Source of the DNA: Patescibacteria group bacterium | GTDB taxonomy: Bacteria > Patescibacteriota > Minisyncoccia > Phycocordibacterales > UBA9973 | Direction of reading: 5' to 3' | Length of the DNA: 64,000 nucleotides | NCBI GenBank assembly: GCA_038063535.1 | Contig: JBBTUV010000004.1 | Coordinates: 114,238-178,237 of the forward strand | Shown: one piece after another, positions 98-28,857 of the stretch | How positions within the stretch are numbered: position 1 is the first letter of the stretch | Layout: each line of letters starts with the position of its first letter | Position numbers and translations under genes: made by a program | Notes under the pieces: generated by a model | Databases searched by the model: none | The model's input: only the letters and a program-made list of their open reading frames with translations | Told to the model about the DNA's origin: nothing

Positions 98-1861
98 CTA
101 TGATTTTAGCACTTTTTGCTCTTTGTTCATACGGCGAAAAACGGAATTGTTTTGGTTCATGAGCTCATCATAGGCTCCTTCTTCCACTACTTGTCCCCTT
201 TCCATTACGGCAATCTTGTCCGTGTATTTAAGCGTGCCCAGGCGGTGAGCGATTATGAGAAATGTTTTGTCTTTGCCGTAAACGCCTAAAAGCTTTTCCA
301 TAATTTTTCCTTCCGTCTCCGAATCAAGCGACGAAGTCGCTTCGTCGAGAATTATTATCGGCGCATTTTTGTAAATCGCGCGGGCGATCCCCAGGCGCTG
401 GCGCTCTCCGCCGGAGAGCATATAGCCCTTTTCACCGATTTTCGCGTCGAGCCCCTCCGGTAGTTTGGCGATCACTTCACCAAGTTGAGAAATTTCAGTA
501 GCCTGATTCAGAAGCTCGCTGTCGCCGCTGCGCATCATAGTAATATTGTCGCGAAGCGAGAGGTTAAAGAGCTCGGTCTCTTGTAGAACTACAGTGATGC
601 TCGAAAGCGTTTCGTTGTGCGAAATCGAGTAATAGTTTTTGTTGCCAATTTTGAATTCACCGGACTCGAGCGCGTAAAGGCCTAAAATTATTTTTGCCAG
701 AGTTGACTTGCCGGAGCCGGAGAGTCCCGCGATCCCCGTCTTTGTATTTCTCGTGAGCGTCAAATTAAAATCCTTCATCCCCATCTGCCCCGACCCGTAA
801 TCCATGTTTGCATTTTTAATCTCGATTGCTTTCCAATCTCTCGGGAACGTTTCATTGCCTCTTTTGATAAACTCCGTTTCTCTAAATATAGGCATCATGT
901 TGCCCAGATCGGACCTGAGCTCAATAAGATCTGAATGCATATTACTGAAATCTCCCAACCCATCACGTAGTCTAAAAAAATAGGCGAAGGCAACCAATAC
1001 TGTTCCTATGGTGATAACCTGAGCGATTACCTCCTTCGCTGTCAAAAATAAGAAGAACATTAATGCTGTACCGTTTATGAACTGTAAAAGATACCACTTA
1101 CTATATCCCGCTTTTGATCTTTTTATTGACATATCCCGCGATTCCTCTTCTCTATTGGCCACACGCGCGCTAATATTTTGTTCACTACCTAGGGCTTTCA
1201 CTGCAAGTAAATTGCTTGCACTTTCTACATACACTCCACCCGCAGCTTGGTTAAATTTATTGAATTCATTACTCAATCGTAGAATTTTTTTGCTTAGCGT
1301 AAATTCTATCGACAAGAAGAGAGCAGTATAAACGAAGATTACAATGGCCAACTTATAATCAATGAAAGACAATATAATAATTGCCCCGACAATGTCGGCA
1401 AAAATTTTGAGAATATCTTTTGTCAAAGCTCCTAGCCAGGACTTGATAGAATCGGCACCAGTAAAGATACGCTGAATTTTGCTTCCAATATTTTCCTTAC
1501 TGTGCCATTCAAGAGAAAATTCAGTTAACCTTTCAAATCCCCAAATTCGCGCCTTGGCTCTGCCCCTTTGTCCCATTATTGATATATTCATCTTGCTGTA
1601 CAAGCGAATTAAAGACGCAGCAATATATGTGCCCCCAATGAAAAGAACATAACCATACAGGGGCTCAAGAGGATCACCGGGAGAGTGTATTGTTAAAAGA
1701 TCAATAATTTTTCCCGTTACATAAGGAGGGACAAAAGTATAGAAGAAAATAGATGAAAGTAGAATTGTAAAAAAAATGAATTTTCTTCTATCATTCTCTA
1801 AGAAATACCAAATTGCCTTTGGTACGTCCCACCAGGAAAAATTTTTTACGTCCTCCTTCAT
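98..1861 (-). CDS. ABC transporter, fused permease/ATP-binding protein (MsbA-like exporter)
   Basis: 587 aa; N-terminal multi-TM region; Walker A GLSGSGKST; ABC signature LSGGERQRLGIARA; Walker B IIILDEATSSLD. Confidence 0.85.
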   Translation of the reverse strand: MKEDVKNFSWWDVPKAIWYFLENDRRKFIFFTILLSSIFFYTFVPPYVTGKIIDLLTIHSPGDPLEPLYGYVLFIGGTYIAASLIRLYSKMNISIMGQRGRAKARIWGFERLTEFSLEWHSKENIGSKIQRIFTGADSIKSWLGALTKDILKIFADIVGAIIILSFIDYKLAIVIFVYTALFLSIEFTLSKKILRLSNEFNKFNQAAGGVYVESASNLLAVKALGSEQNISARVANREEESRDMSIKRSKAGYSKWYLLQFINGTALMFFLFLTAKEVIAQVITIGTVLVAFAYFFRLRDGLGDFSNMHSDLIELRSDLGNMMPIFRETEFIKRGNETFPRDWKAIEIKNANMDYGSGQMGMKDFNLTLTRNTKTGIAGLSGSGKSTLAKIILGLYALESGEFKIGNKNYYSISHNETLSSITVVLQETELFNLSLRDNITMMRSGDSELLNQATEISQLGEVIAKLPEGLDAKIGEKGYMLSGGERQRLGIARAIYKNAPIIILDEATSSLDSETEGKIMEKLLGVYGKDKTFLIIAHRLGTLKYTDKIAVMERGQVVEEGAYDELMNQNNSVFRRMNKEQKVLKS

Positions 1862-3792
1862 TCGAGAACCCTCCTCAAGACGTCTTCAGGCACTTCTTTA
1901 GTTTTTTCAGCCTTAGGCTGACCAGCCTCTGGCTGGTACGGCGGAGGCGGCGCAGCTTGCCCTGAGCTTGCTTGTTGTGAGCTCGTCGAACCAGTCGAAG
2001 GGGGCACTTTTTCTTCGATTACTTTTTTTAATTTATCCATATCCTCGGCTTTTGCGGACAAATCTCTTGCGTCTTTTGTTTCTTTTCTTTCATTTTTTTT
2101 CAAATTCGCAAGCGAGATCGGTGGCGGGGTCGGCTTTACTTCTTCTTTCATCGCTTTGCTCAAAACTTCTTTGAGACCGACATTGTCTTTCTGCTGCCTA
2201 TGGAATTTTTTTGGGGGAACCTTCGGGCTCTCAATGCCGGTGGGCGAAAATTCTATTCCGAGCGCGGCAAGCGGCTCGTAAAACGTAGCCTCCTTTTCTA
2301 TAAGCTCTTTTTTCGAAAGGCGGACAGGCTGGATCTCTCCAACCTTTATCTTCGCGTGGCAATCGTCGCAATAAACTGGGCGGCCCGGTTCGGGCTTGAA
2401 AGGCACCATCGTTTCTCTTCCGCAATTCGAGCAGATCGCCTTGAATCGCTCGCTCGAGGGTATCGGCTCGTCACCTAGAGCCATCCCGCTCCAGTCGGTG
2501 ATCTCTTTCTCAACATCGACGCGCGGCCGGCAATAAAGCTCACGAGATGCTTTGATAACTTCACGTTCTATCGCTGGGTCGCTCCGGTTTTCGATCGGGG
2601 GCAATGTCTTTGCCGAGAATGGCCTTGAAGTTATGCCGTCGATCATGAGCTTCATGTAAACCTTGTAGTTCGGCAGATTCACGATATCTTGCGGAGTGAA
2701 TTCCGGCTCGAATTCTGCTTCGAGAAATTCAGCGTCATCGGCACCCACGCGGAAAACTATCATAGTGCCGACGTTGCCAAAGACTGCATCGCGAACAGAA
2801 GAATTTTTCTCCGCCACGAGTTGGGCGGTGTACTGGTGCGCGATGGTGAGGTTTAGGCGGTATTTGCGCGCCTCCGATAGGATGCCTGCGAAAGCGTCGG
2901 TCACGAAATTTTGGAATTCGTCGACGTAGAGGTAAAAATCCTTTCGCTCGTCCTCGGGGATCCTCACGCGCTCCATCGCCGCAAGTTGGATCTTGGTGAT
3001 GATCATGCCACCCAAGAGCGCGGAGTTATCTTCGCCGATCCGGCCCTTCGAAACGTTTACCAAGAATATTTTTCCTTGGTTCATGATGTCGAAGATGTTG
3101 ATGGTGCTTTGCGACTGGCCGACGACGTTTCGGATGATCGAGGTTGAGAGGAACTGACCGACTTTGTTTTGGATCGGAGCGATCGCTTCGTTTCGGAACT
3201 TATCCTGCCAGGCCTCGTACTCGTGTATCCAAAATGCCTTGATCACCGGGTCCTTCAGATTGTTGATGATTTTTTGCCGGTAGTCTTTGTCGACGAGCAT
3301 GCGCGGGATGCCAAGGAGCGTGGTTCCTGGCGTATCAAGAAGCGCGAGGATCGTGTTGTTCAAAATATATTCCATGCGAGCGCTCCAGGCGTTCGCCCAG
3401 ATCTTAGTAAATATTCCCATCAGGCCCGAGGCGACGAGGTGTTTGTACTTCTCGTCCACAAGTTCAAGTACGTTGAAGCCGATATGATAGTCGGTATCGG
3501 CTGGGTTGAAATAAATGACGTCTTTCATCCGGTTTGACGGGATGGCGGAGAGGACGGATTCCACTAATTCGCCGTGCGGGTCTACCACGCAGACGCCTTC
3601 GCCGTTCCGGATGTTCTGGATAATCATGTTGAACATCAGGACCGATTTGCCGGTGCCGGATTTTCCCAAGAGATAAACATGCTGGCGCCTATCCTTGCGC
3701 TTGATGCCAAAGAGAGTGTTTTTATCCCGATAGGTCGTGAGCCCAAGATAGGTAATCTCCCTATTTATCGGTATTTCCGGAATGTCAGGCAT
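1858..3792 (-). CDS. VirD4/TraG-like P-loop NTPase (T4SS coupling-protein family) with C-terminal zinc ribbon and low-complexity K/E/P-rich tail
   Basis: Walker A LLGKSGTGKSVLMF; Walker B FYLYVDEFQNF; CSNCGRE..(17 aa)..CDDCH zinc ribbon; ~130 aa low-complexity C-terminus; overlaps upstream ABC gene by 4 nt. Confidence 0.5.
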   Translation of the reverse strand: MPDIPEIPINREITYLGLTTYRDKNTLFGIKRKDRRQHVYLLGKSGTGKSVLMFNMIIQNIRNGEGVCVVDPHGELVESVLSAIPSNRMKDVIYFNPADTDYHIGFNVLELVDEKYKHLVASGLMGIFTKIWANAWSARMEYILNNTILALLDTPGTTLLGIPRMLVDKDYRQKIINNLKDPVIKAFWIHEYEAWQDKFRNEAIAPIQNKVGQFLSTSIIRNVVGQSQSTINIFDIMNQGKIFLVNVSKGRIGEDNSALLGGMIITKIQLAAMERVRIPEDERKDFYLYVDEFQNFVTDAFAGILSEARKYRLNLTIAHQYTAQLVAEKNSSVRDAVFGNVGTMIVFRVGADDAEFLEAEFEPEFTPQDIVNLPNYKVYMKLMIDGITSRPFSAKTLPPIENRSDPAIEREVIKASRELYCRPRVDVEKEITDWSGMALGDEPIPSSERFKAICSNCGRETMVPFKPEPGRPVYCDDCHAKIKVGEIQPVRLSKKELIEKEATFYEPLAALGIEFSPTGIESPKVPPKKFHRQQKDNVGLKEVLSKAMKEEVKPTPPPISLANLKKNERKETKDARDLSAKAEDMDKLKKVIEEKVPPSTGSTSSQQASSGQAAPPPPYQPEAGQPKAEKTKEVPEDVLRRVLE

Positions 3793-5792: not shown

Positions 5793-6302
5793 ATGTCAAG
5801 CAATATCAGGAAAATCCTTAAATTACTTGCTGAAAAGCCCGCGATACCCGTAGAGACTCTTAAGGACCGAAACGACCCAAAGGCTTCCTATGCCCTTGCA
5901 AGAACCGCAAGGGCCCTTGTAACGGGCGGATATGTGGAAATGCTAAATTCGAGCCGGGAAAGCTATTTGCGGCTTACCAAGAAAGGTAAAACCAGGCTCG
6001 ATACCATACGCCTAGAGGGAGATGGGATGCCCGTAGCGCAAAATTGGGATGGCAAGTGGCGAATAATTATTCTTGATATCGACGAAGCAAGGAAGAGTGA
6101 ACGTGAAGCACTACGATATCTCTTGAAGAAAGCAAATTTCGTCTGCGTTAAGAATACCGTCTGGATCTCGCACCTCCCCTACGAGCATCTTTTTGAGAAT
6201 ATAAAAAAGGATCTCGGCCTCACCACCGAGCTCATGATCCTCGTCACTGATAATCTAGACCCCGAAACCCGTCTTGCTTTCCTAGAGGCCCTCAAAAAAT
6301 AA
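5793..6302 (+). CDS. PaaX-like winged-helix transcriptional regulator
   Basis: Central WDGKWRIIILDIDEARKSEREALRYLL resembles the PaaX C-terminal domain (WDGxWhhh...LPExxRxxRxxLR); N-terminal wHTH-like region; divergent from dnaK. Confidence 0.5.
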   Translation: MSSNIRKILKLLAEKPAIPVETLKDRNDPKASYALARTARALVTGGYVEMLNSSRESYLRLTKKGKTRLDTIRLEGDGMPVAQNWDGKWRIIILDIDEARKSEREALRYLLKKANFVCVKNTVWISHLPYEHLFENIKKDLGLTTELMILVTDNLDPETRLAFLEALKK

Positions 6303-6332: not shown

Positions 6333-8045
6333 TCAGTAGACTTCTTGCTGATAGCAACGCTCGCAGTAGATTATTTCCGGCCGCTCGGAGGAATAAGTGG
6401 TTTTGAATTCTTCCAGGCACTTCCCTTCTCCGTGAAAGTGCTCGTTCTTTTCACACATGCATGATCTGTCCCAAAGCTTTAATGGATTTCTTTGTTTAAT
6501 CCTCTGGAAATGCCGGCAGTTCGGACACAGGCGTGGAAAAGGCAGACTCATTCTTTTGTAGAATTTAAATTCCTCTGGAACAATTTTGAAAGCCTCGGTG
6601 CATTGTTCTTCACAACCCCCAGCATGAGCACAAGCGATTGTTTTGTTCAAAATGTCTTCAGGAACGTCCTGGATATGATCAGGGATTTCATTGCTCGCGA
6701 TATCAATTTTATAGTTTCTTTTCTTCTCTTCCCGCCATTTGTATCCTTGTTTCTCTGCTTGCGTTTTAGTTAAAGGAAAATACTCTTGGGCTATAGTTTC
6801 GTTGTAGGCAAGCGGCGAGAGCCAGGCCGGGAAAAATTCCCCGAATTCCTTATTTTTTATCATGTGCTCGACTATTTTGGGCACAAGTTTCTCGTATTCC
6901 TCTTTTGAATACTGCTTATTCAGGACGCAATATTCTTTTTTGCGCAGGCCGATGCAGCCGAAAATATTCCGGCATTCGTGACATTCTTCATTGTAACGTG
7001 CATCTTGGTTGTTAATATTACGAGTTCCAAAAGCAACATTGTGACCACCAAAACAGTGCGCAATTTCATAGACCAACTCGCTCCCCCACCCCTGGAAGGA
7101 GGTATCGTAGCAATCCTTCGCAACGTTCCTAATATAGAATAAAAATCTTGAATCCTCAATTTGAGCAGAGGAATAAGAATCTTTCGTGTTTCGGGATTCA
7201 TAAAGATCGTCTCCTGTGGAGTTAACCGACTTTATAATCCTCGCAAAGCGATGGATGGCCTGTCTATCCAATTCTGCAAGTTTTTTCTTATATTCTAAGT
7301 GAGCTTCAAAACTCCCTAAGTTGGCTTTCTCAATGAATTTTTTGTATTCCTCTCTAGAGTGTGGTTTGTTCCAGATGTGATATTGCTTGTTTCTAAGACC
7401 CACACAACCGAAGCAGTTTATGCAGTTTTTGCAGTCAATCAAATAGTAGCTTTCCACGCAAGCTTCTGAATGCCCACTAAAAAATAAATTATTGGACCCA
7501 AGGCATTCAAAAAGTTCGTAGCTGAATTCAATCTTCTCGCAGAATGCGATATCCATCGAATCGCCAGAATTGAAAATTTGATTGGCAAAGTATACTCTTT
7601 CATTACCCTTTCCCCCGAAAAGCAGATAGCAATCTCGAAAGTCCAGCCCGTAGTTGCAGTATTCGCTATTTACAAAATTCGTCCGATATAGATTCACTCG
7701 TGGCACAGAAACCTGGAGTGAACGGAATTGATTGAAAAAAGGCTGAGAAAAATCATAAGGCCTGCCGTAAGAGAGTGGGTCCCATTTGTCGGAAAGCCAG
7801 CAGTCCCGGCAGTAAATTGTAAAAGGCTCTTCCTCGTGGTAAATAGTCAGTGTTGATTCTCCGCAGAGAGCGCATTTACGCCGGTAGAAAACACGATTAT
7901 TTCTAAAAAGGAGTCTCCGCTGGAACCGACAATCCGGGCAGAAAGTCGGCGGTGGCACCTGCATCTTCTCGTAAAAATTAAAATCTTCCGGCTCGATTAC
8001 GAAGTTGTTTTTACAATTCTGGCAAGTTTTAGTTTCCGCGTTCAT
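6333..8045 (-). CDS. Large cysteine-rich protein, uncharacterised family; paralog of 27166..28857
   Basis: 570 aa; N-terminal CxxC..(23)..CPxCR and CxxC..(17)..CRDC zinc ribbons, repeated at the C-terminus; two internal CxNCFGCxGLRxKxY...NK..S.EEYxK repeats; ATGA overlap with purL stop. Confidence 0.7.
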   Translation of the reverse strand: MNAETKTCQNCKNNFVIEPEDFNFYEKMQVPPPTFCPDCRFQRRLLFRNNRVFYRRKCALCGESTLTIYHEEEPFTIYCRDCWLSDKWDPLSYGRPYDFSQPFFNQFRSLQVSVPRVNLYRTNFVNSEYCNYGLDFRDCYLLFGGKGNERVYFANQIFNSGDSMDIAFCEKIEFSYELFECLGSNNLFFSGHSEACVESYYLIDCKNCINCFGCVGLRNKQYHIWNKPHSREEYKKFIEKANLGSFEAHLEYKKKLAELDRQAIHRFARIIKSVNSTGDDLYESRNTKDSYSSAQIEDSRFLFYIRNVAKDCYDTSFQGWGSELVYEIAHCFGGHNVAFGTRNINNQDARYNEECHECRNIFGCIGLRKKEYCVLNKQYSKEEYEKLVPKIVEHMIKNKEFGEFFPAWLSPLAYNETIAQEYFPLTKTQAEKQGYKWREEKKRNYKIDIASNEIPDHIQDVPEDILNKTIACAHAGGCEEQCTEAFKIVPEEFKFYKRMSLPFPRLCPNCRHFQRIKQRNPLKLWDRSCMCEKNEHFHGEGKCLEEFKTTYSSERPEIIYCERCYQQEVY

Positions 8046-10894
8046 TTCATGCTGTCGGAGAACTTATGATAAAGGCGATGCAATTTGTTGACAGAATATT
8101 TTTTGAGGCCGAACTTGAGTTGGTTACGCCCTGTAACTACCCCAAGGCGGGTATACGGGACACTTTTTGCTATTTTTTCAAACGCCGGCATGTTTTCCGG
8201 CGCAACCGAAACCAATACCCTGCCTTGGCTTTCTGAAAATAAGTTGTGTTTGCTGACATCAACACCCGCCCCAAGCATTCCACCAATGCAGGCTTTGCTT
8301 AAGGCAACCGCCAGGCCGCCGGAGGTGAGAGAAATCGACGAGGCAAGAAGCTCTTTTTCTATCGTTCGCTCGAGCGATCTGTATATTTTTAAATTAGCCC
8401 TTGCGTCGACCCTAATTCCTTTTTTAGTTTTACCGAGGAGATATATTACGTCGCCCGCGCTCTTGAACTCCGGAGTAACGACTTTATTTATGTCAGGCAC
8501 GACGCCGATCGAGGAGATAAGGAGAGTTGGCGGCACGGAGACTTTGGTCGGCCGGCCCATAGCATCAAAACCCTTGAAGTCGTTGAACATACTGTCCTTG
8601 CCGGAGACGAAAGGCGTCCTGTAGGCAATCGAGTAATCATAGCAAGCACGAGCGGCTTCCTTGAGCTGCCACAAGCGTTCCGGCTCGTTTGAAGAGCACC
8701 AGCAGAAATTGTCGAGAAGCGCGAGATGGTCGAGTTTTGCACCGGCTACGACGGCGTTCCGGACAGCGGTATCTATGGCTGCGGCGGCCATATCATAAGG
8801 GCTCGTTTCGCTCAATTCCGGATAAAGGCCGAGGGAGAGCACGACCCCTTTTTTTGAAGTAAGTACCGGCTGGAAGACCTGCGCGTCGGTATTGATGCGG
8901 CCCGGACCGGAGAGCGGTTTTAGGATCGAGCCGGCTTGAACCTCGTGGTCGTATTGCTCGGAGATGAAAGCGAAACTGCTGATGTTCTTATCGGCGAGAA
9001 GTTTTTCCAAGCTTCTCGCGACTGGCTTCGGGCTCGCGGGCTTAGGCCGCCTGGTGCGCAGATGAACTTTCGGTCGGCCGTCGTGCAGGAATCCCATATC
9101 CATATCCATTATCTTCTTACCGCGCCAGCGGAGCACGCATCTACCCGAGCCAGTAAACTCACCGATCCGAGTTGCCTCCACGCCGCGACTCTTCATCAGA
9201 GCCGCGAACCTCGCCCAATTGCGCTTGGGTACGGCCAGGGTCATCCGCTCCTGCGATTCCGATACCCATATCTCCCAAGGTTGCATATTCGCGTACTTAA
9301 GCGGTACTTTTTCGAGGTTCACTACCACCCCCTTTGATTCCTTGGCCATCTCCGAGACCGAAGAGGACAACCCACCAGCGCCATTGTCGGTGATGCTGTG
9401 ATAGAGATTTTCACCGCGTGCTTCCTTAACCACTACGTCCGAGAGCTTTTTCTGGGTAATCGGGTCACCGATCTGAACCGCACTCACAGGAGAATTCGCA
9501 TCAATAGCGAGAGATGAGAAAGTCGCCCCATGGATGCCGTCTCGACCCACGCGTCCGCCGATCATAACCACATAATCGCCGGGCTTCGCGCCTTTCTTGT
9601 AAAGCAACCGGCCGTGCTCGCGCTTTGGCATGAGGCCGACCGTACCCGCGAAGACAAGCGGTTTGCCCCGATATCTTTCACCGAAACGCACAAAACCCGA
9701 GACGGTGGGGATGCCGGAAGTGTTGCCGCCGGCATTGATGCCTTTTATCACCCCTTCCATGATCCTTTTCGGCGGGAACATTTTCTGGGTCAAGTCTCGG
9801 TCGCGATAAAGCGGTCTGGTATCCTCGGGCAATCCGAAACAAAAGCCGTATGTATTGGCAATGGGTTTCGCACCCAAACCGAAACCGATAGAATCGCGGT
9901 TCACGCCCACGATGCCGGTGATGGCTCCGCCGAAGGGGTCGAGCGACGAGGGAGTGTTGTGCGTTTCGACTTTATGAGAGATGAGGTATTTATCGTCGAA
10001 CTTGATCGCGCCGGAGTTATCGGAGAAGACGGATACGCAAATATCTCCGCGCCCGCGCTTTTCCCTTATTTTATTTGTGGCACCCTTTATGTAAGTTTTG
10101 TAGAGTCCGTCCCGGATATTATCGATCGCAGAAGCGAAGATCGTGTGCTTGCAGTGTTCGCTCCATGTTTGGGCGAGCGACTCAAGCTCGATATCGGTTG
10201 GGCGGCGACCGAGTTTGCGAAAATAATCGCGGATCGCCTTCATGGAGCGAAGGTCGAGCGCAAGCGGCCCCCGGCCCTCGATACCCTGCTCGCTGATTTT
10301 CTTAAGCTCACTGTCCCCCACCTCAAGGTCAATCTTCGTTACTGGTCTACGCTTCTCAAGGGTGACCTTCGGCACAGATTGGGGAAGCATCAATTTCCCG
10401 TTTCCTACCTTGCGGATCTCACCACGCTCAATAAGCGGATTGTAAAGCGAGGCCGCAATTTTTTTCAGCGCCGCCGCACCGACCTTGCCCTTCAGTAAAA
10501 AAACTCGCGATGTATATACCTCGATGCCCTTCTTTCCGAGCAGATCTTCGGCCATTTCCCGCACCGTGTGCCCGACGTTGTCGGTGACGCCAGGCAGATA
10601 GCCCACTTCGATGGCTAACCTGTGCCCTTCGGCCGGAGCGCGGTCAATATAAAAGCGCTCGGTGACGGGGTTGGTAAGTGCACGGGCAATCTTTGCGACA
10701 TTTCCGTGCGAGAGACGCGCGTCGAGCGCATAGACGTCGAGTAGGCGAAGGCTACGGACTCCGTACGCGCGCCAGGACTTGAGATATTTGAGGGCTCTCG
10801 GGTCCACGCTTCTCGCCGCGACGTATATCCGCGAAATCATACCGGGATTATAACAGAAAATCCTCTCATATGAATGATTCAGCAAGTAATCCAA
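8042..10894 (-). CDS. purL: Phosphoribosylformylglycinamidine synthase, large-type synthetase (PurL) lacking the glutaminase domain
   Basis: 950 aa; N-terminal region resembles the large-PurL N-domain (LRSMKAIRDYFRKLGRRPTDIELESLAQTWSEHCKHTIF); AIR-synthase-like motifs (GIVGVNRDSIGFG, SITDNGAGGLSSSVSEMA). Confidence 0.8.
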   Translation of the reverse strand: MDYLLNHSYERIFCYNPGMISRIYVAARSVDPRALKYLKSWRAYGVRSLRLLDVYALDARLSHGNVAKIARALTNPVTERFYIDRAPAEGHRLAIEVGYLPGVTDNVGHTVREMAEDLLGKKGIEVYTSRVFLLKGKVGAAALKKIAASLYNPLIERGEIRKVGNGKLMLPQSVPKVTLEKRRPVTKIDLEVGDSELKKISEQGIEGRGPLALDLRSMKAIRDYFRKLGRRPTDIELESLAQTWSEHCKHTIFASAIDNIRDGLYKTYIKGATNKIREKRGRGDICVSVFSDNSGAIKFDDKYLISHKVETHNTPSSLDPFGGAITGIVGVNRDSIGFGLGAKPIANTYGFCFGLPEDTRPLYRDRDLTQKMFPPKRIMEGVIKGINAGGNTSGIPTVSGFVRFGERYRGKPLVFAGTVGLMPKREHGRLLYKKGAKPGDYVVMIGGRVGRDGIHGATFSSLAIDANSPVSAVQIGDPITQKKLSDVVVKEARGENLYHSITDNGAGGLSSSVSEMAKESKGVVVNLEKVPLKYANMQPWEIWVSESQERMTLAVPKRNWARFAALMKSRGVEATRIGEFTGSGRCVLRWRGKKIMDMDMGFLHDGRPKVHLRTRRPKPASPKPVARSLEKLLADKNISSFAFISEQYDHEVQAGSILKPLSGPGRINTDAQVFQPVLTSKKGVVLSLGLYPELSETSPYDMAAAAIDTAVRNAVVAGAKLDHLALLDNFCWCSSNEPERLWQLKEAARACYDYSIAYRTPFVSGKDSMFNDFKGFDAMGRPTKVSVPPTLLISSIGVVPDINKVVTPEFKSAGDVIYLLGKTKKGIRVDARANLKIYRSLERTIEKELLASSISLTSGGLAVALSKACIGGMLGAGVDVSKHNLFSESQGRVLVSVAPENMPAFEKIAKSVPYTRLGVVTGRNQLKFGLKKYSVNKLHRLYHKFSDSMK

Positions 10895-11498
10895 GGACTT
10901 CTGCGTCTGTCACCTGTTCAAATGCGCGGTAGTGAGAACCAACTGCTCCCTTAAACTCTTCCGGCGGCTCAAGTACTATGATCTCATCCACTCCATCACG
11001 TTCAAGCTCCCTAATGGACTCTGCCGGTGCAACTGGAACGGCCACGACCACTTTCTTGGGATGATCCTTCATTACTCTCTTAACGGCAAGACGCATACTA
11101 AAACCCGTCGCAATGCCGTCGTCAGTGAGGATTACTATTTTGTTTTTTAAATTTATCAGTGGGCTATTGCCACGGTAGGCCAAACTTCTGCGAAGCGCTT
11201 CTTTCTTTTCTTTTTCTATTTCATTCGCAAGCCATTTTTTATCAATACTTTCAGCTTCTCCCTCGTTAAGGAGTAGAGTGCCCTTCTCATCGACAACTCC
11301 TACCGCGTATTCAGGATTCCCTGGAAGACCGATTTTTCGAACGGGAATAATATCTAGCGGTGCCTTGATTGCCTTAGCTACCTCGTATCCAAGCACAACT
11401 CCCCCTCGCGGAAGCGCCAAGACAACCACATCCTCTCCACTGTATTTAAGCAACGTCATCGCAAGCGCTTTCCCGGCTTCGGTTCTGTCTTTGAACAT
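10866..11498 (-). CDS. Phosphoribosyltransferase-domain protein (predicted PRTase, unknown substrate)
   Basis: PRPP-binding motif IVILTDDGIATGFSM and VLALPRGGVVLGYEVA. Confidence 0.75.
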   Translation of the reverse strand: MFKDRTEAGKALAMTLLKYSGEDVVVLALPRGGVVLGYEVAKAIKAPLDIIPVRKIGLPGNPEYAVGVVDEKGTLLLNEGEAESIDKKWLANEIEKEKKEALRRSLAYRGNSPLINLKNKIVILTDDGIATGFSMRLAVKRVMKDHPKKVVVAVPVAPAESIRELERDGVDEIIVLEPPEEFKGAVGSHYRAFEQVTDAEVLGLLAESFI

Positions 11499-24674: not shown

Positions 24675-25457
24675 TTATAAAATAACCTTTTTAGCAACCA
24701 CTTTGCGTTTCAGGAGCTTGGAAGCAACTTTTTCGAACTTTCTCGAATCTCCGGTCGTAAAGTAGATCGCACTGCCTTTGCCGTTCGCTTTTTTCTTAAG
24801 CAAAAATCTTGTTCGTCTTGCTATGGCCAGCCCTGAATCGATTAATTTTATTTTGGGTCCTAGCATTTTTCCTATTGTGCTCTTAAGGAACGGATAATGT
24901 GTGCATCCAAGCACTAAGCAATCAGCATTTGAATTTTTGACGCCGTTCAAGTACTTCGCGAGTAATTTTTTGACTTCAGGATTATCAATACTTCCTTTCT
25001 CAACAGTGTTCTCCAAATTCTTGCAGCCGATATTAATTACATCCACATCTTTGGCAAATTCCCTGATGAGTCTTCCCACGGTTTTACTTTTCGAAGTAGC
25101 CGGAGTGGAGATGACGGCGATAATGCCGCTTCTCGTGCGTTTTGCGGCAGGCTTAATAGCAGGCTCTGTACCCACGATAGGCAATTTATATCCGGCACGA
25201 AGTTCCTTAATCGTGTAGCACGTGGCGGTATTGCAGGCAATTACGAACATCTTGATATCCTGCTCGGCGATGAGATAATCCACGACCTTGTACATGAATC
25301 CAACAAGCTCTTTTTTACCCTTTTCGCCGTAAGGTACATTTTTCTGGTCGGCAAAAAAGACAAAATTTTCCTTAGGCAGGAGTTTTTTAAGCTCAATAAG
25401 TATAGAGAGCCCTCCCACCCCCGAATCAAAAACCCCGATCGGCCGATTATCTGTCAT
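24675..25457 (-). CDS. murI: Glutamate racemase
   Basis: IGVFDSGVGGLS and CNTA / GCTHYP catalytic cysteine motifs. Confidence 0.9.
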   Translation of the reverse strand: MTDNRPIGVFDSGVGGLSILIELKKLLPKENFVFFADQKNVPYGEKGKKELVGFMYKVVDYLIAEQDIKMFVIACNTATCYTIKELRAGYKLPIVGTEPAIKPAAKRTRSGIIAVISTPATSKSKTVGRLIREFAKDVDVINIGCKNLENTVEKGSIDNPEVKKLLAKYLNGVKNSNADCLVLGCTHYPFLKSTIGKMLGPKIKLIDSGLAIARRTRFLLKKKANGKGSAIYFTTGDSRKFEKVASKLLKRKVVAKKVIL

Positions 25458-26416
25458 TTGAAGCTTGTTTTTAATTTCTTCTCGCGACTATATCGCTCAA
25501 TCGCTAGTTCAATCAGTTTGTCGAGAAGTTTGGGAAAAGGGAGCCCGCTTGCCTCAAACATTCGCCGGAACATAACTGGCCCCGGGATAGTATTGATTTC
25601 ATTGACATAAACCTGGCCTTTATGACTTACAAAAAAATCAACTCTTCCCATACCTTCGCATTCGAGTGCTTTATAAGTGCGCCTGGCTAAATCCTGAATT
25701 CTTTTTAAAAGTTTACGGGGCAATTTTACCGGAACAACATATTCAGTCCCACTCGAATCATCGTATTTGGCCTTGTAGGTGTAAAACTCTTCTTTTGGAA
25801 TAATTTCGCCTGGGCGTGATACAAAAAGTTTACCGTTTCCAATGACCGCGCACTCGATTTCCCTGCCCTCTATTCCCTCCTCGATCAGGATTTTTTTGTC
25901 GTATTTAAATGCGCCTTGGACCGCCCTTTTGTATTCTCTCGCATTCATCACCTTACTTACTCCTACCGAGGAACCGGTATTTGCGGGTTTAACGAAAATC
26001 GGCAACCTTAACTTTTTTCCCACCACGCTGAAACTCGGAACGTCATTAGCCACGCAGGAAATAAATTTCACAACTGGGATCCTGGCATCGCGCAGCAGTT
26101 TTTTGCTCACATCCTTATCCATGCCAACTGCTGATCCCAGTACTCCCGCGCCTACGAAAGGAACACCCAGGAGCTTCAGGAATCCCTGGATCGTTCCGTC
26201 CTCACCGAAAAGCCCGTGGAATACCGGTACAACTACGTCGTAATTCCTTAAGCTATTCCAATTATATCTTCCGCTCCTTGGAATTTTTTTGGGCGTAACC
26301 AAGTATTTATTTCGGTCCAGATTCTCAATCACTTTCCGCGCAGACTCAATCGAAACTTCATGTTCCGGAGATTTTCCTCCATAGAGAACAGCTATCTTCA
26401 ATTTTTTTCTCGCCAT
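25454..26416 (-). CDS. ddl: D-alanine--D-alanine ligase
   Basis: IAVLYGGKSPEHEVS N-domain, ATP-grasp core (GSSVGV, EINTIPG). Confidence 0.9.
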   Translation of the reverse strand: MARKKLKIAVLYGGKSPEHEVSIESARKVIENLDRNKYLVTPKKIPRSGRYNWNSLRNYDVVVPVFHGLFGEDGTIQGFLKLLGVPFVGAGVLGSAVGMDKDVSKKLLRDARIPVVKFISCVANDVPSFSVVGKKLRLPIFVKPANTGSSVGVSKVMNAREYKRAVQGAFKYDKKILIEEGIEGREIECAVIGNGKLFVSRPGEIIPKEEFYTYKAKYDDSSGTEYVVPVKLPRKLLKRIQDLARRTYKALECEGMGRVDFFVSHKGQVYVNEINTIPGPVMFRRMFEASGLPFPKLLDKLIELAIERYSREKKLKTSFK

Positions 26417-27147
26417 CCCGGAAGTATAGCACTTTCGATGTCCTTAGGGAAATTAGTCAGGTTTTTCAAGCCTTTTTGGGTAATAAGAACCATGTCTTCG
26501 ATTCGCACCCCGCCCCAGCCCTTGAAGTAAAGTCCCGGCTCGACTGTCATGACACAACCGACCGGCAGAATATCCCCGCTCTGGGGTTTGAAATTCGGCC
26601 ACTCGTGGATAACGGTGCCGATGCCGTGCCCGAGGCCGTGAGGAAAATGTTTCCGACCTAAAAATTTTCTCACCGCTTTGTCTATTATCCAAGTTCGCCT
26701 CTCGCCCTGTTCTATTTTTCTTAGTGCCATTTTTTGCGCCTTGAGCACCTTCAAGTAGACTTTCTTTTGCCGCTTCGTCGGCACACCGGCAAAAAAAGTT
26801 CTCGTCATGTCCGAGCAGTAATGATTGACCGTCGTCCCAAAATCAAGCATCGCAATATCACCTCTTTTTAGTTTCGCCTTTCCTGGCATGTGGTGAACTT
26901 TTGCGGTATTTTTACCGAAAGAAACAATCGGTTCGAAGGAAAGAATCGGTGCACCCCTTTTTCTCAACTCTCGTTTGATCAAATTCGCAATTTTGACCTC
27001 GCTTACACCGGCCCTAAGTTTCACTATAGTATAATGCAGTACTTGCTCGCTTATCCTCTGAGCCTTGATAATATTTGCGAGTTCCTTCTTCGCCTTAACC
27101 GCCCGAACTTCGTGAATTAGTTTCGTTTTCATTATGGAATTATGCAA
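26398..27147 (-). CDS. M24 family metallopeptidase (methionine aminopeptidase / Xaa-Pro peptidase-like, short form)
   Basis: Pita-bread metal ligand pattern D..D...HGLGHGIGTVIHEWP...E...E; 249 aa. Confidence 0.7.
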   Translation of the reverse strand: MHNSIMKTKLIHEVRAVKAKKELANIIKAQRISEQVLHYTIVKLRAGVSEVKIANLIKRELRKRGAPILSFEPIVSFGKNTAKVHHMPGKAKLKRGDIAMLDFGTTVNHYCSDMTRTFFAGVPTKRQKKVYLKVLKAQKMALRKIEQGERRTWIIDKAVRKFLGRKHFPHGLGHGIGTVIHEWPNFKPQSGDILPVGCVMTVEPGLYFKGWGGVRIEDMVLITQKGLKNLTNFPKDIESAILPGWREKN

Positions 27148-27165
27148 AATAGCATAGTTAGAAAA

Positions 27166-28857
27166 TCAGTAGATCTCTTTGTTATAGCAGGATTCGCAGT
27201 AGACCTTTTCTTTTCGCTCTGGCGCAAAAGCAGTTTCGAATTCGTTTGGGCACAACCCGTTATGGTCATGGTTTTCTAAATTACATCGGCATTTCCCGTG
27301 CCAGAGCTTTCTGGGTGGGCGTAAATTGAACCACCTCATGTATCTACAATCAAAACAAAGCCTAGGGATTGGCATATTTTCATTTTTATAAAAAGTAAAT
27401 TCGTATGGAACAATATTGTAGTTTTTTGAGCAGTTTATGCATTTCAAAACTTCTTTTGTTATGTCGTCCTTAATATCTTTTATGTTATCAGGTATATCTT
27501 CTGGCTCCATTGTTTCTTTCCCATATGTCCCGAGAATTTTATCTTCCCATTGCCAACCCCTTCTAAGTACTTCTTCTTTAGTCATTGGCAGGTAACGTTG
27601 ACCCTGCGTCTCATTGTAGCAAACCGGAGCAATTGAGGGGGGCATAAATTCACCAAACTCTCTAGTTTTTTTCATGTGATCGATAATTTTAGTTCTTAAT
27701 TTTTCATATTCATCTTTTGAATATTTCTTATTTAAAATCATATATTCTCCCTTTTTTACAGAAATGCAGCCAAATAAATTTTGGGAATTTTGGCACGTGT
27801 CTCCGTACATCACATTCATGTTGTCATAGCAAAGATGACAAAATTGGCAATTTGACACTCGAGTACAACCCTGAGCTTCGTAGATTTGTTCGCACTCTAG
27901 GCCTACATGATAACAATCAAAAGAGTCTCTGATGCCCAAGACGGAGTACATGTATTTTGAATTTTCTACTCTTTCAGCGTCGAAAATAAAACTCGAATTC
28001 TTCACATGGGTAAACATATTACCAAGAGCGTTTATATTAAATTCTCCTGTTACGTATTTATGAATTGCTTGATTTGCTATCATTTCTACAAATTCCCTAT
28101 AAAGTTTCTCTCGGACAGCGAAAGAACCCAGGTCATATTCGGAAACTTTTTTCATATATTCTTTACGGGGATGTTCCTCATTTTTGAAACAGTATTTTTT
28201 GTTACGAAGATTATAGGATAAAAAGCAATCTGTGCACCCATGCATATCGTGAGAGTAATGAACATTCACACAATCTCTCATTAGAAAATTATATTGGCAT
28301 TGGTATGATTTGATTACATCCATGCACCCATACATCCGTTCTCCTTTTTCTCTTACGTAATAACAATCCATGCAATCTCGAGAATAAAATACCCAGTTAC
28401 TATAGTAAACATTTTCGTTAAAAAATGAAGAAATAGAGAGGTAGACGTTCTTATTATCGCCAGAATGATTCGTGTATTCAGAATTCACACTTCTTTTATT
28501 GAGTAGCGCCATGCGGGGAACTTCGAGTTGTAATTCATGAAATTGCTCGAAGAAGGGCCGGTTGAAATCAAAGTCTCGACCGTAAGAGCTCGCGTCCCAA
28601 CCGTCACCCCACCAGCATTCATTGCAGTAAACTTTGTGAGGCTTGTTTGGCGAATAAATAGTTACCGTGCTTTTACCGCAAAGATCACAGTTCCTACGAT
28701 AGAGCGTTCGTTCGTTTCTCCAAGCATAACGGCGTAACTGCCGGCACTCCGGGCACCAGGTTGGTGGCGTGACGGAGATCTTTTTGTAAAAATCAAAATC
28801 TTCCGGCGCGATTACGAAATCTTTTTTACAATTTTGGCACGAGCGGGTTTCCATCAA
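27166..28857 (-). CDS. Large cysteine-rich protein, uncharacterised family; paralog of 6333..8045
   Basis: 563 aa, collinear with the 570-aa paralog (same N- and C-terminal double zinc ribbons, same internal duplicated unit); ATGA overlap with rseP stop. Confidence 0.7.
   Translation of the reverse strand: MMETRSCQNCKKDFVIAPEDFDFYKKISVTPPTWCPECRQLRRYAWRNERTLYRRNCDLCGKSTVTIYSPNKPHKVYCNECWWGDGWDASSYGRDFDFNRPFFEQFHELQLEVPRMALLNKRSVNSEYTNHSGDNKNVYLSISSFFNENVYYSNWVFYSRDCMDCYYVREKGERMYGCMDVIKSYQCQYNFLMRDCVNVHYSHDMHGCTDCFLSYNLRNKKYCFKNEEHPRKEYMKKVSEYDLGSFAVREKLYREFVEMIANQAIHKYVTGEFNINALGNMFTHVKNSSFIFDAERVENSKYMYSVLGIRDSFDCYHVGLECEQIYEAQGCTRVSNCQFCHLCYDNMNVMYGDTCQNSQNLFGCISVKKGEYMILNKKYSKDEYEKLRTKIIDHMKKTREFGEFMPPSIAPVCYNETQGQRYLPMTKEEVLRRGWQWEDKILGTYGKETMEPEDIPDNIKDIKDDITKEVLKCINCSKNYNIVPYEFTFYKNENMPIPRLCFDCRYMRWFNLRPPRKLWHGKCRCNLENHDHNGLCPNEFETAFAPERKEKVYCESCYNKEIY

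Follow-up and report, generated by a model that had tools for sequence, protein, structure and literature searches.

Here we present an analysis of purSL, a gene related to those for formylglycinamidine ribonucleotide (FGAM) synthase, in a 64-kb stretch of contig JBBTUV010000004.1 from a Patescibacteria group bacterium (GenBank assembly GCA_038063535.1, positions 114,238 to 178,237 of the forward strand), hereafter called the window; a further 10 kb past the window start was also read, giving ~74 kb of the 187-kb contig in all. The gene belongs to a described and common form of PurL, mdPurL or PurSL, in whose product a linker joins two N-terminal PurS-like repeats to the FGAM synthetase core. 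Judged from its sequence, the window gene is neither degenerate nor divergent, and its sole oddity is that its usual neighbors are absent from the ~74 kb, purQ as well as the other genes of the purine operon. We consider it probable that purSL encodes an ordinary, functional mdPurL whose operon has been rearranged, with purQ and the remainder of the pathway encoded elsewhere in the genome.

Domain architecture and family membership

The longest reading of the purL open reading frame (ORF), 8042..10894 on the minus strand, starts from a TTG codon at 10894 and gives 950 amino acids (aa), the length reported in an initial annotation of this DNA. The long ORF is real, but its product is 933 aa from the ATG at 10843, because every homolog aligns from residue 2 of the ATG version and the family consensus N-terminus is MISRIYV. 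On this product, Pfam placed one FGAR-AT_linker, one AIRS and two AIRS_C domains, with E-values from 3e-15 to 4e-42, and gave no match to a glutaminase (GATase) domain, the ORF ending at residue 933. Both the fused N-terminal domain and the lack of a C-terminal glutaminase had been noticed in the initial annotation, the first being borne out by an AlphaFold2 (AF2) model of the protein and the second by Pfam. The motif quoted there as part of the N-domain, however, lies in the linker and the beginning of the synthetase core.

The protein had also been called a large-type PurL. The best NCBIfam model was that of small PurL, TIGR01736, at 469.1 bits and thus below the cutoff of 525.75 (TIGR01736 / NF002290), whereas the large-PurL models reached 214-315 bits (TIGR01735, 214) against cutoffs of 783-1123; by hidden Markov model (HMM) score, the synthetase core is nearer to small PurL than to large PurL. 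Sequence matches in the PDB were to small PurL (3viu, E 1.7e-61) and to large PurL (1t3t, E 2.9e-34). The best Foldseek match of the AF2 model was Salmonella large PurL (lgPurL), with E ~1e-38 over ~1,060 columns, and small PurLs were matched over ~740-800 columns. The model has a mean pLDDT of 65.7, with a good N-domain and a low-scoring active-site core, and was used for the domain layout only.

In the AF2 model, the N-domain (residues ~1-147) forms two beta-alpha-beta-alpha-beta repeats, of which the first has a pLDDT of ~80. A profile of the N-domain gave weak matches of repeat 1 to the PurS structures 1gtd, 3d54_B and 1vq3 (E 0.08-0.15), Pfam PurS (PF02700) matched residues 77-143 at a sub-threshold E of 0.006, and the NCBIfam PurS model PRK06423 matched the N-terminal region weakly (E 4e-5). 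Across the family, Pfam PurS matches 14 of 30 N-domains from Candidate Phyla Radiation (CPR), archaeal and alphaproteobacterial members, with a best E of 8.8e-7, and the repeat 2 motif EIGxLPGVTDNVG is kept in members from all three groups. Since the N-domain is made up of two PurS-like repeats, a separate purS is not expected, and a "missing purS" beside an mdPurL gene is no gap in the pathway. The usual partner of this form is a PurQ encoded separately.

Members of this form were found in Methanomicrobiales, Rickettsiales (Wolbachia, Anaplasma), Micavibrio, spirochete metagenome-assembled genomes (MAGs) and many Patescibacteria, those from Methanoculleus and Methanoregula being 52-53% identical to the window protein over the full length. 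The nearest protein match, at 71% identity, lies on a 4.9-kb contig that ends within the Cys-rich gene that follows purSL; scans of genomes and metagenomes for closer relatives gave nothing else above 59-60% identity. Relatives are annotated as "subunit PurSL" by JGI/IMG and often as "AIR synthase-related protein" at NCBI, and a literature search for the whole word "PurSL" returned nothing relevant.

Conservation, evolutionary rate and composition

In an alignment of 186 family members, 262 columns are at least 95% conserved, and the window protein keeps 258 of them; its four violations compare with a family median of 1.5 and a mean of 3.0 over the same columns. Core alignments were made to the PurL proteins of T. 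thermophilus and T. maritima. His230 (in SEHC), Glu293, His295, Thr309 and Asp317, together with the catalytic-loop motif GGRVGRDGIHGATFSS, are present and are invariant in a 54-sequence alignment; the catalytic and ATP/Mg roles of these residues are in part those given in PMC7124931. The patterns sought, all of which were found, were the His of SEHC, the ExH of E[ST]HN, the Thr of GAxTG, the Asp of RD and the loop GxDGxxGA[ST]xSS, and the motif SEHC[KN]H occurs in 120 of the 120 relatives listed. A check of the residues that bind ATP and formylglycinamide ribonucleotide (FGAR) had been suggested in the initial annotation, and all those that we checked are conserved. The spacing of His295 and Thr309, +14, equals that of His296 and Thr310 in Salmonella PurL, the pair that forms its ammonia-exit gate (PMC7124931).

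Two apparent anomalies were considered and rejected. The window protein reads ETHNTPS where the textbook motif is E[ST]HNHPS, which might be taken for loss of a catalytic His. ETHN[S/T/A]PS, however, is found in all 120 relatives listed, including those embedded in pur operons, and the gate Thr has its +14 spacing to the first His of the motif, which is conserved; no catalytic His has been lost. Similarly, a score under the NCBIfam cutoff might be read as a sign of new function, yet five pur-operon-embedded relatives score 472-523 bits with TIGR01736, all under 525.75 like the window protein at 469. The low score is a trait of the mdPurL family and is not peculiar to the window gene.

Distances to outgroups suggest that the window purSL is without rate acceleration. 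Relative to archaeal mdPurLs, the window protein stands at a distance of 0.455, as against 0.466 +/- 0.007 for the 121 Paceibacteria-group sequences (the window included), and relative to alphaproteobacterial mdPurLs at 0.471, as against 0.463 +/- 0.007 for the same set; both distances lie within the range that this set spans. The GC content at third codon positions (GC3) of purSL is 0.63, which is native-like (window mean 0.57, sd 0.06). At the strain level there was too little variation for a ratio of nonsynonymous to synonymous polymorphism (pN/pS), the other assemblies being 99.9-100% identical.

The pur operon in relatives and its absence from the window

To provide a context for the window locus, related loci were collected (n = 167), of which 112 were informative in having at least 3.5 kb of downstream sequence. 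In 106 of these 112 loci, a purQ on the same strand follows within 3.5 kb, and in 93 it comes directly after purSL. The six exceptions are two Wolbachia loci, one Anaplasma locus, one Nitrospirota MAG and two loci where purQ stands 5-6 kb off, pushed away by Cys-rich genes and others. purSL is without an adjacent purQ in the Wolbachia loci and is separated from purQ in the Anaplasma locus. In the Paceibacteria/Nomurabacteria relatives, which share 57-63% identity with the window protein, purSL leads complete operons with the gene order guaB-purA-purSL-(Cys-rich)-purQ-purF-purN-purD-(purH)-purE-purM-purC-purB. The window shares the genes Dus and DnaX upstream of the locus with two relatives (L003 and L004), and its purSL locus is therefore a syntenic remnant of a full pur operon.

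These operons also bear on the premise of the initial annotation that a genome of this type usually lacks de novo purine synthesis, which does not hold for the clade of this organism. A complete de novo purine pathway was reported in 32% of 399 CPR MAGs (PMC11608272), while other CPR studies emphasize the absence of nucleotide synthesis.

At the window locus itself, tblastn with purQ, purS, purF, purN, purD, purH, purE, purM, purC, purB, purA and guaB gave no match in the 64 kb at a threshold as loose as E<=1, and at this threshold no recognizable pur-gene remnant was found there; nor was any pur gene called in the 10 kb past the window start. The initial annotation had seen no purQ, purS or other pur genes nearby, and in this our searches agree with it. 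The linkage to purQ that marks mdPurL loci in 106 of 112 relatives is thus missing here. This absence weighs against a functional mdPurL with its partners elsewhere: no purQ or other pur gene occurs over ~74 kb of a 187-kb contig, in a clade where the pur genes are normally contiguous, and the observation fits a loss of the pathway equally well.

One explanation would be an artefact of assembly or binning, with chimeric junctions around purSL and purQ truly adjacent to it. Contigs of MAGs can be chimeric, and nothing more specific speaks for this explanation. Independent assemblies from other samples make it extremely improbable: two Hainich assemblies in ENA and the Logan assembly ERR3858120 carry the same sequence at 99.9-100% identity and jointly cover purSL, the Cys-rich gene, a PaaX-like gene, dnaK and onward, and the Logan assembly SRR32696710 has an identical gene order. 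The window itself comes from a MAG of Hainich groundwater (well H41) with the locus-tag prefix AAB500, in which the Cys-rich gene is AAB500_02595 and the contig measures 186,874 bp. Because assemblies of the same population repeat the junctions at this level of identity, the locus is not chimeric.

Loss of the pathway deserves more weight. purSL could be a recently orphaned remnant in a lineage from which purQ and the other de novo genes have disappeared, an intact leftover with no current function that awaits decay or deletion. In keeping with this, guaB and purA upstream and purQFND and the following genes downstream are all missing from their syntenic place, and many CPR genomes are without nucleotide synthesis. 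Against it, the ORF is intact across 933 codons and keeps the near-invariant positions described above as well as all checked catalytic residues. Its rate is not accelerated either, even with a nearest known relative at only 71% identity, so that the arrangement need not be recent. Moreover, streamlined genomes seldom retain 2.8 kb of useless gene. We regard such a leftover as unlikely. Were purQ and the pathway truly missing from the complete genome, this perfectly conserved orphan would be an example, of modest interest, of a symbiont that has kept part of a pathway.

Predicted function of purSL

The account that we favor is of a working mdPurL in a dispersed pathway. The window protein would be the ATP-dependent synthetase subunit of FGAM synthase (EC 6.3.5.3), with the two tandem PurS-like repeats fused at its N-terminus making a separate PurS unneeded. 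On the model of the PurLQS complex and of large PurL, the amide oxygen of FGAR would be activated with ATP to give an iminophosphate intermediate, to which ammonia from a separately encoded PurQ glutaminase would then be added; the predicted activity is thus FGAR + ATP + NH3/Gln -> FGAM. In this lineage, the ancestral guaB-purA-purSL-purQFND... operon would have been broken up around purSL, which is now flanked by genes of atypically low GC3 (those for a phosphoribosyltransferase and the Cys-rich protein), and purQ and the other pur genes would most likely lie elsewhere in the genome. Such scattering of pur genes has a precedent in the Rickettsiales loci of Wolbachia and Anaplasma.

On this evidence, the window gene typifies a form of FGAM synthase that is already described and very common, in a clade that makes purines. 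The scores of mdPurL/PurSL proteins under the model cutoff, together with the label "AIR synthase-related protein", may lead automated pathway calls to undercount purine synthesis in the CPR.

Layout of the locus and neighboring genes

The coordinates of purSL, its domains and the two adjoining genes are collected in Table 1. The three genes follow one another on the minus strand. With the corrected start, purSL does not overlap the upstream phosphoribosyltransferase (PRTase) gene, as had been thought from the longer ORF, and is set apart from its stop by a 22-nt gap. The overlap claimed for the downstream Cys-rich gene is real, the purSL stop and the Cys-rich start sharing 4 nt (ATGA).

Table 1. 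purSL, the domains of its product and the adjoining genes (window coordinates).
Feature	Position	Strand	Evidence
mdPurL/PurSL coding sequence, 933 aa + stop	8042..10843	-	ORF, homolog-set start, Pfam/NCBIfam, PDB, Foldseek
PurS-like repeat 1, residues ~1-70	10634..10843	-	AF2 model, weak profile matches to PurS structures
PurS-like repeat 2, residues ~73-147, motif EIGxLPGVTDNVG	10403..10627	-	Pfam PurS, PRK06423, family conservation
FGAR-AT linker, residues 193-233, ends in SEHCKH motif (His230)	10145..10267	-	Pfam PF18072, E 3.3e-15
FGAM synthetase core (AIRS/AIRS_C pseudo-dimer), residues 275-933	8045..10021	-	Pfam AIRS 4.4e-21, AIRS_C 4.3e-42
TT1426-type (COG1926-like) type-I PRTase	10866..11498	-	Pfam Pribosyltran; PDB 1wd5, E 1.4e-40
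Cys-rich protein, 570 aa	6333..8045	-	ORF; ATGA junction with purSL

A promoter-like element, TTCATA-16 nt-TGTTATAAT with an extended -10, was seen at 10847..10874 (-) and ends 4 nt ahead of the purSL ATG. If real, it would allow purSL to be transcribed separately from the PRTase gene, as a near-leaderless mRNA; taken as a whole, the search for promoters and terminators did not rise above the shuffled expectation. No riboswitch or other RNA was found upstream of purSL with Rfam, which returned tRNAs only.

The PRTase, of 210 aa, belongs to the TT1426 family, which is common in Patescibacteria (7,588 homologs). Its gene stands at the place that guaB and purA hold in the relatives, and its GC3 is 0.42, ~2.4 sd lower than the window mean. 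A PRTase of this type was found beside purSL in none of the 167 related loci. The initial annotation had proposed a PRTase-purL-CysRich operon, and the three genes do adjoin; given its lack in every one of those loci, however, there is no conserved PRTase-purL operon, and the PRTase is a neighbor of purSL and not a conserved partner.

The Cys-rich product contains 33 Cys and has no match in Pfam, NCBIfam or PHROG, and its AF2 model has no significant match in the PDB. It belongs to a family of >7,600 homologs, all "hypothetical", and all those with a source name come from MAGs of the Patescibacteria group. The window holds a paralog with 40% identity at 27166..28857 (-), which likewise overlaps the stop of the gene upstream of it, and both window copies have a low GC3 (0.47 for the copy after purSL and 0.40 for the paralog). 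In 15 related loci a Cys-rich homolog comes directly after purSL; homologs are also placed behind purN or purQ, or stand in tandem, two or three together, between purSL and purQ, and copies just ~35-46% identical to the window protein fill the same slot after purSL. The pattern looks like that of a multi-copy gene family inserting into operons, and because complete operons carry the Cys-rich gene alongside purQ, its product is no replacement for PurQ.

Further features of the family were noted in passing. Besides the two window copies, examples occur at L132:12269-17958 and in the loci L164, L010 and L098, and family members have ~570 aa with 33-34 Cys. The CxxC...CxxC modules found toward the N- and C-termini constitute internal repeats. 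Copies within pur operons have a low GC3, and a 4-nt overlap with the stop of the preceding gene is frequent among them. As a by-product of this analysis, the Cys-rich family is more curious than purSL itself.

These neighbors are central to a third explanation, raised in the initial annotation, that a lone enzyme resembling FGAM synthetase has a non-canonical role. The mdPurL would then act without PurQ, either alone or in partnership with the co-translated Cys-rich protein, the TT1426-like PRTase or both, and might be an ammonia-dependent amidotransferase acting on FGAR or on another, host-derived ribonucleotide amide. Small PurL alone can reportedly use NH4+ in vitro, the lone status of the gene holds over 74 kb, and the 4-nt start/stop overlap with the Cys-rich gene recurs in several relatives. 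Against this, the Cys-rich gene in relatives sits within otherwise complete pur operons that include purQ, at differing places and in differing numbers; only the window has the PRTase next to purSL; and no substitution separates the window protein from its operon-embedded relatives. The conservation and the score controls accordingly give no sequence sign of a changed function, and we think such a role improbable. Less probable again is its most elaborate version, in which the lineage has dropped purQ and de novo synthesis, and an mdPurL translationally coupled to the Cys-rich protein, possibly along with the TT1426-type PRTase, amidates a scavenged ribonucleotide intermediate without need of PurQ. 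Neither the orphaned remnant nor the non-canonical role has positive support.

Several other features of the window were observed. A divergent PaaX-like gene (5793..6302, +) separates the Cys-rich gene from dnaK, at the point at which relatives have the continuation of the pur operon; the sole domain of its 169-aa product is the Cas2-like central domain of PaaX (PF20803, E 1.8e-17). Three genes are wedged between dnaK and dnaJ at 98..3792 (-), and likewise at L171:2846-4330, encoding a VirD4/TrwB-like coupling-protein ATPase with a treble-clef zinc finger, an ABC transporter (GC3 0.45, low) and a DUF87/HerA-like ATPase. A block at 24675..28857 (-), comprising murI, ddl, a gene for an M24 peptidase and the second Cys-rich copy, has a GC content of 0.38-0.46 as against a window mean of 0.50, and is flanked by genes of normal composition.

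Comparison with known PurL systems

The closest described system is mdPurL, named by Brown, Hoopes, White & Sarisky (2011, Biol Direct 6:63, PMC3261824), who reported it in Methanospirillum, Methanoculleus, Methanoregula and others as a PurL with ~200 extra N-terminal residues at the place of PurS. The weak sequence signal of the PurS-like extension was also remarked upon by these authors; five of the six mdPurL organisms were without purS, and in M. marisnigri a full-length purQ adjoins mdpurL (PMC3261824). Their proteins and the window protein share the N-terminal extension at the PurS place and the lack of a glutaminase domain. The window purSL differs in having no adjacent purQ and no other pur gene within 74 kb, and in being flanked by the genes for the TT1426-type PRTase and the Cys-rich protein.

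With lgPurL, as in Salmonella (StPurL, PDB 1T3T) and human PFAS, the window protein shares the order of domains, from an N-domain that mimics a PurS dimer through the linker to the FGAM synthetase core, as well as the SEHCxH motif and the pair equivalent to His296/Thr310. It differs in being without the ~350-aa C-terminal triad glutaminase, which leaves it at 933 aa as against ~1,300 aa. Orphan relatives of PurL are also known from viruses: the FGARAT homologues of gammaherpesviruses (ORF75, BNRF1) have non-enzymatic roles in viruses that encode no purine pathway, which is the sort of precedent that a non-canonical role of the window protein would require. These are full-length, lgPurL-like proteins and, to our knowledge, are not known as enzymes, whereas the window protein keeps every catalytic, near-invariant residue tested individually.

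With the three-subunit system of small PurL, PurS and PurQ (T. maritima PurLQS, PDB 3D54; B. subtilis), the window protein shares a homologous core (E 1e-51 to 1e-61) and, as predicted here, a glutaminase that is a separate polypeptide. A small PurL has 600-740 aa, starts at the linker with its SEHC motif and works with a free PurS, whereas in the window protein ~190 PurS-like residues precede the linker, and two copies of PurS are carried in tandem, fused to PurL, rather than as free subunits.

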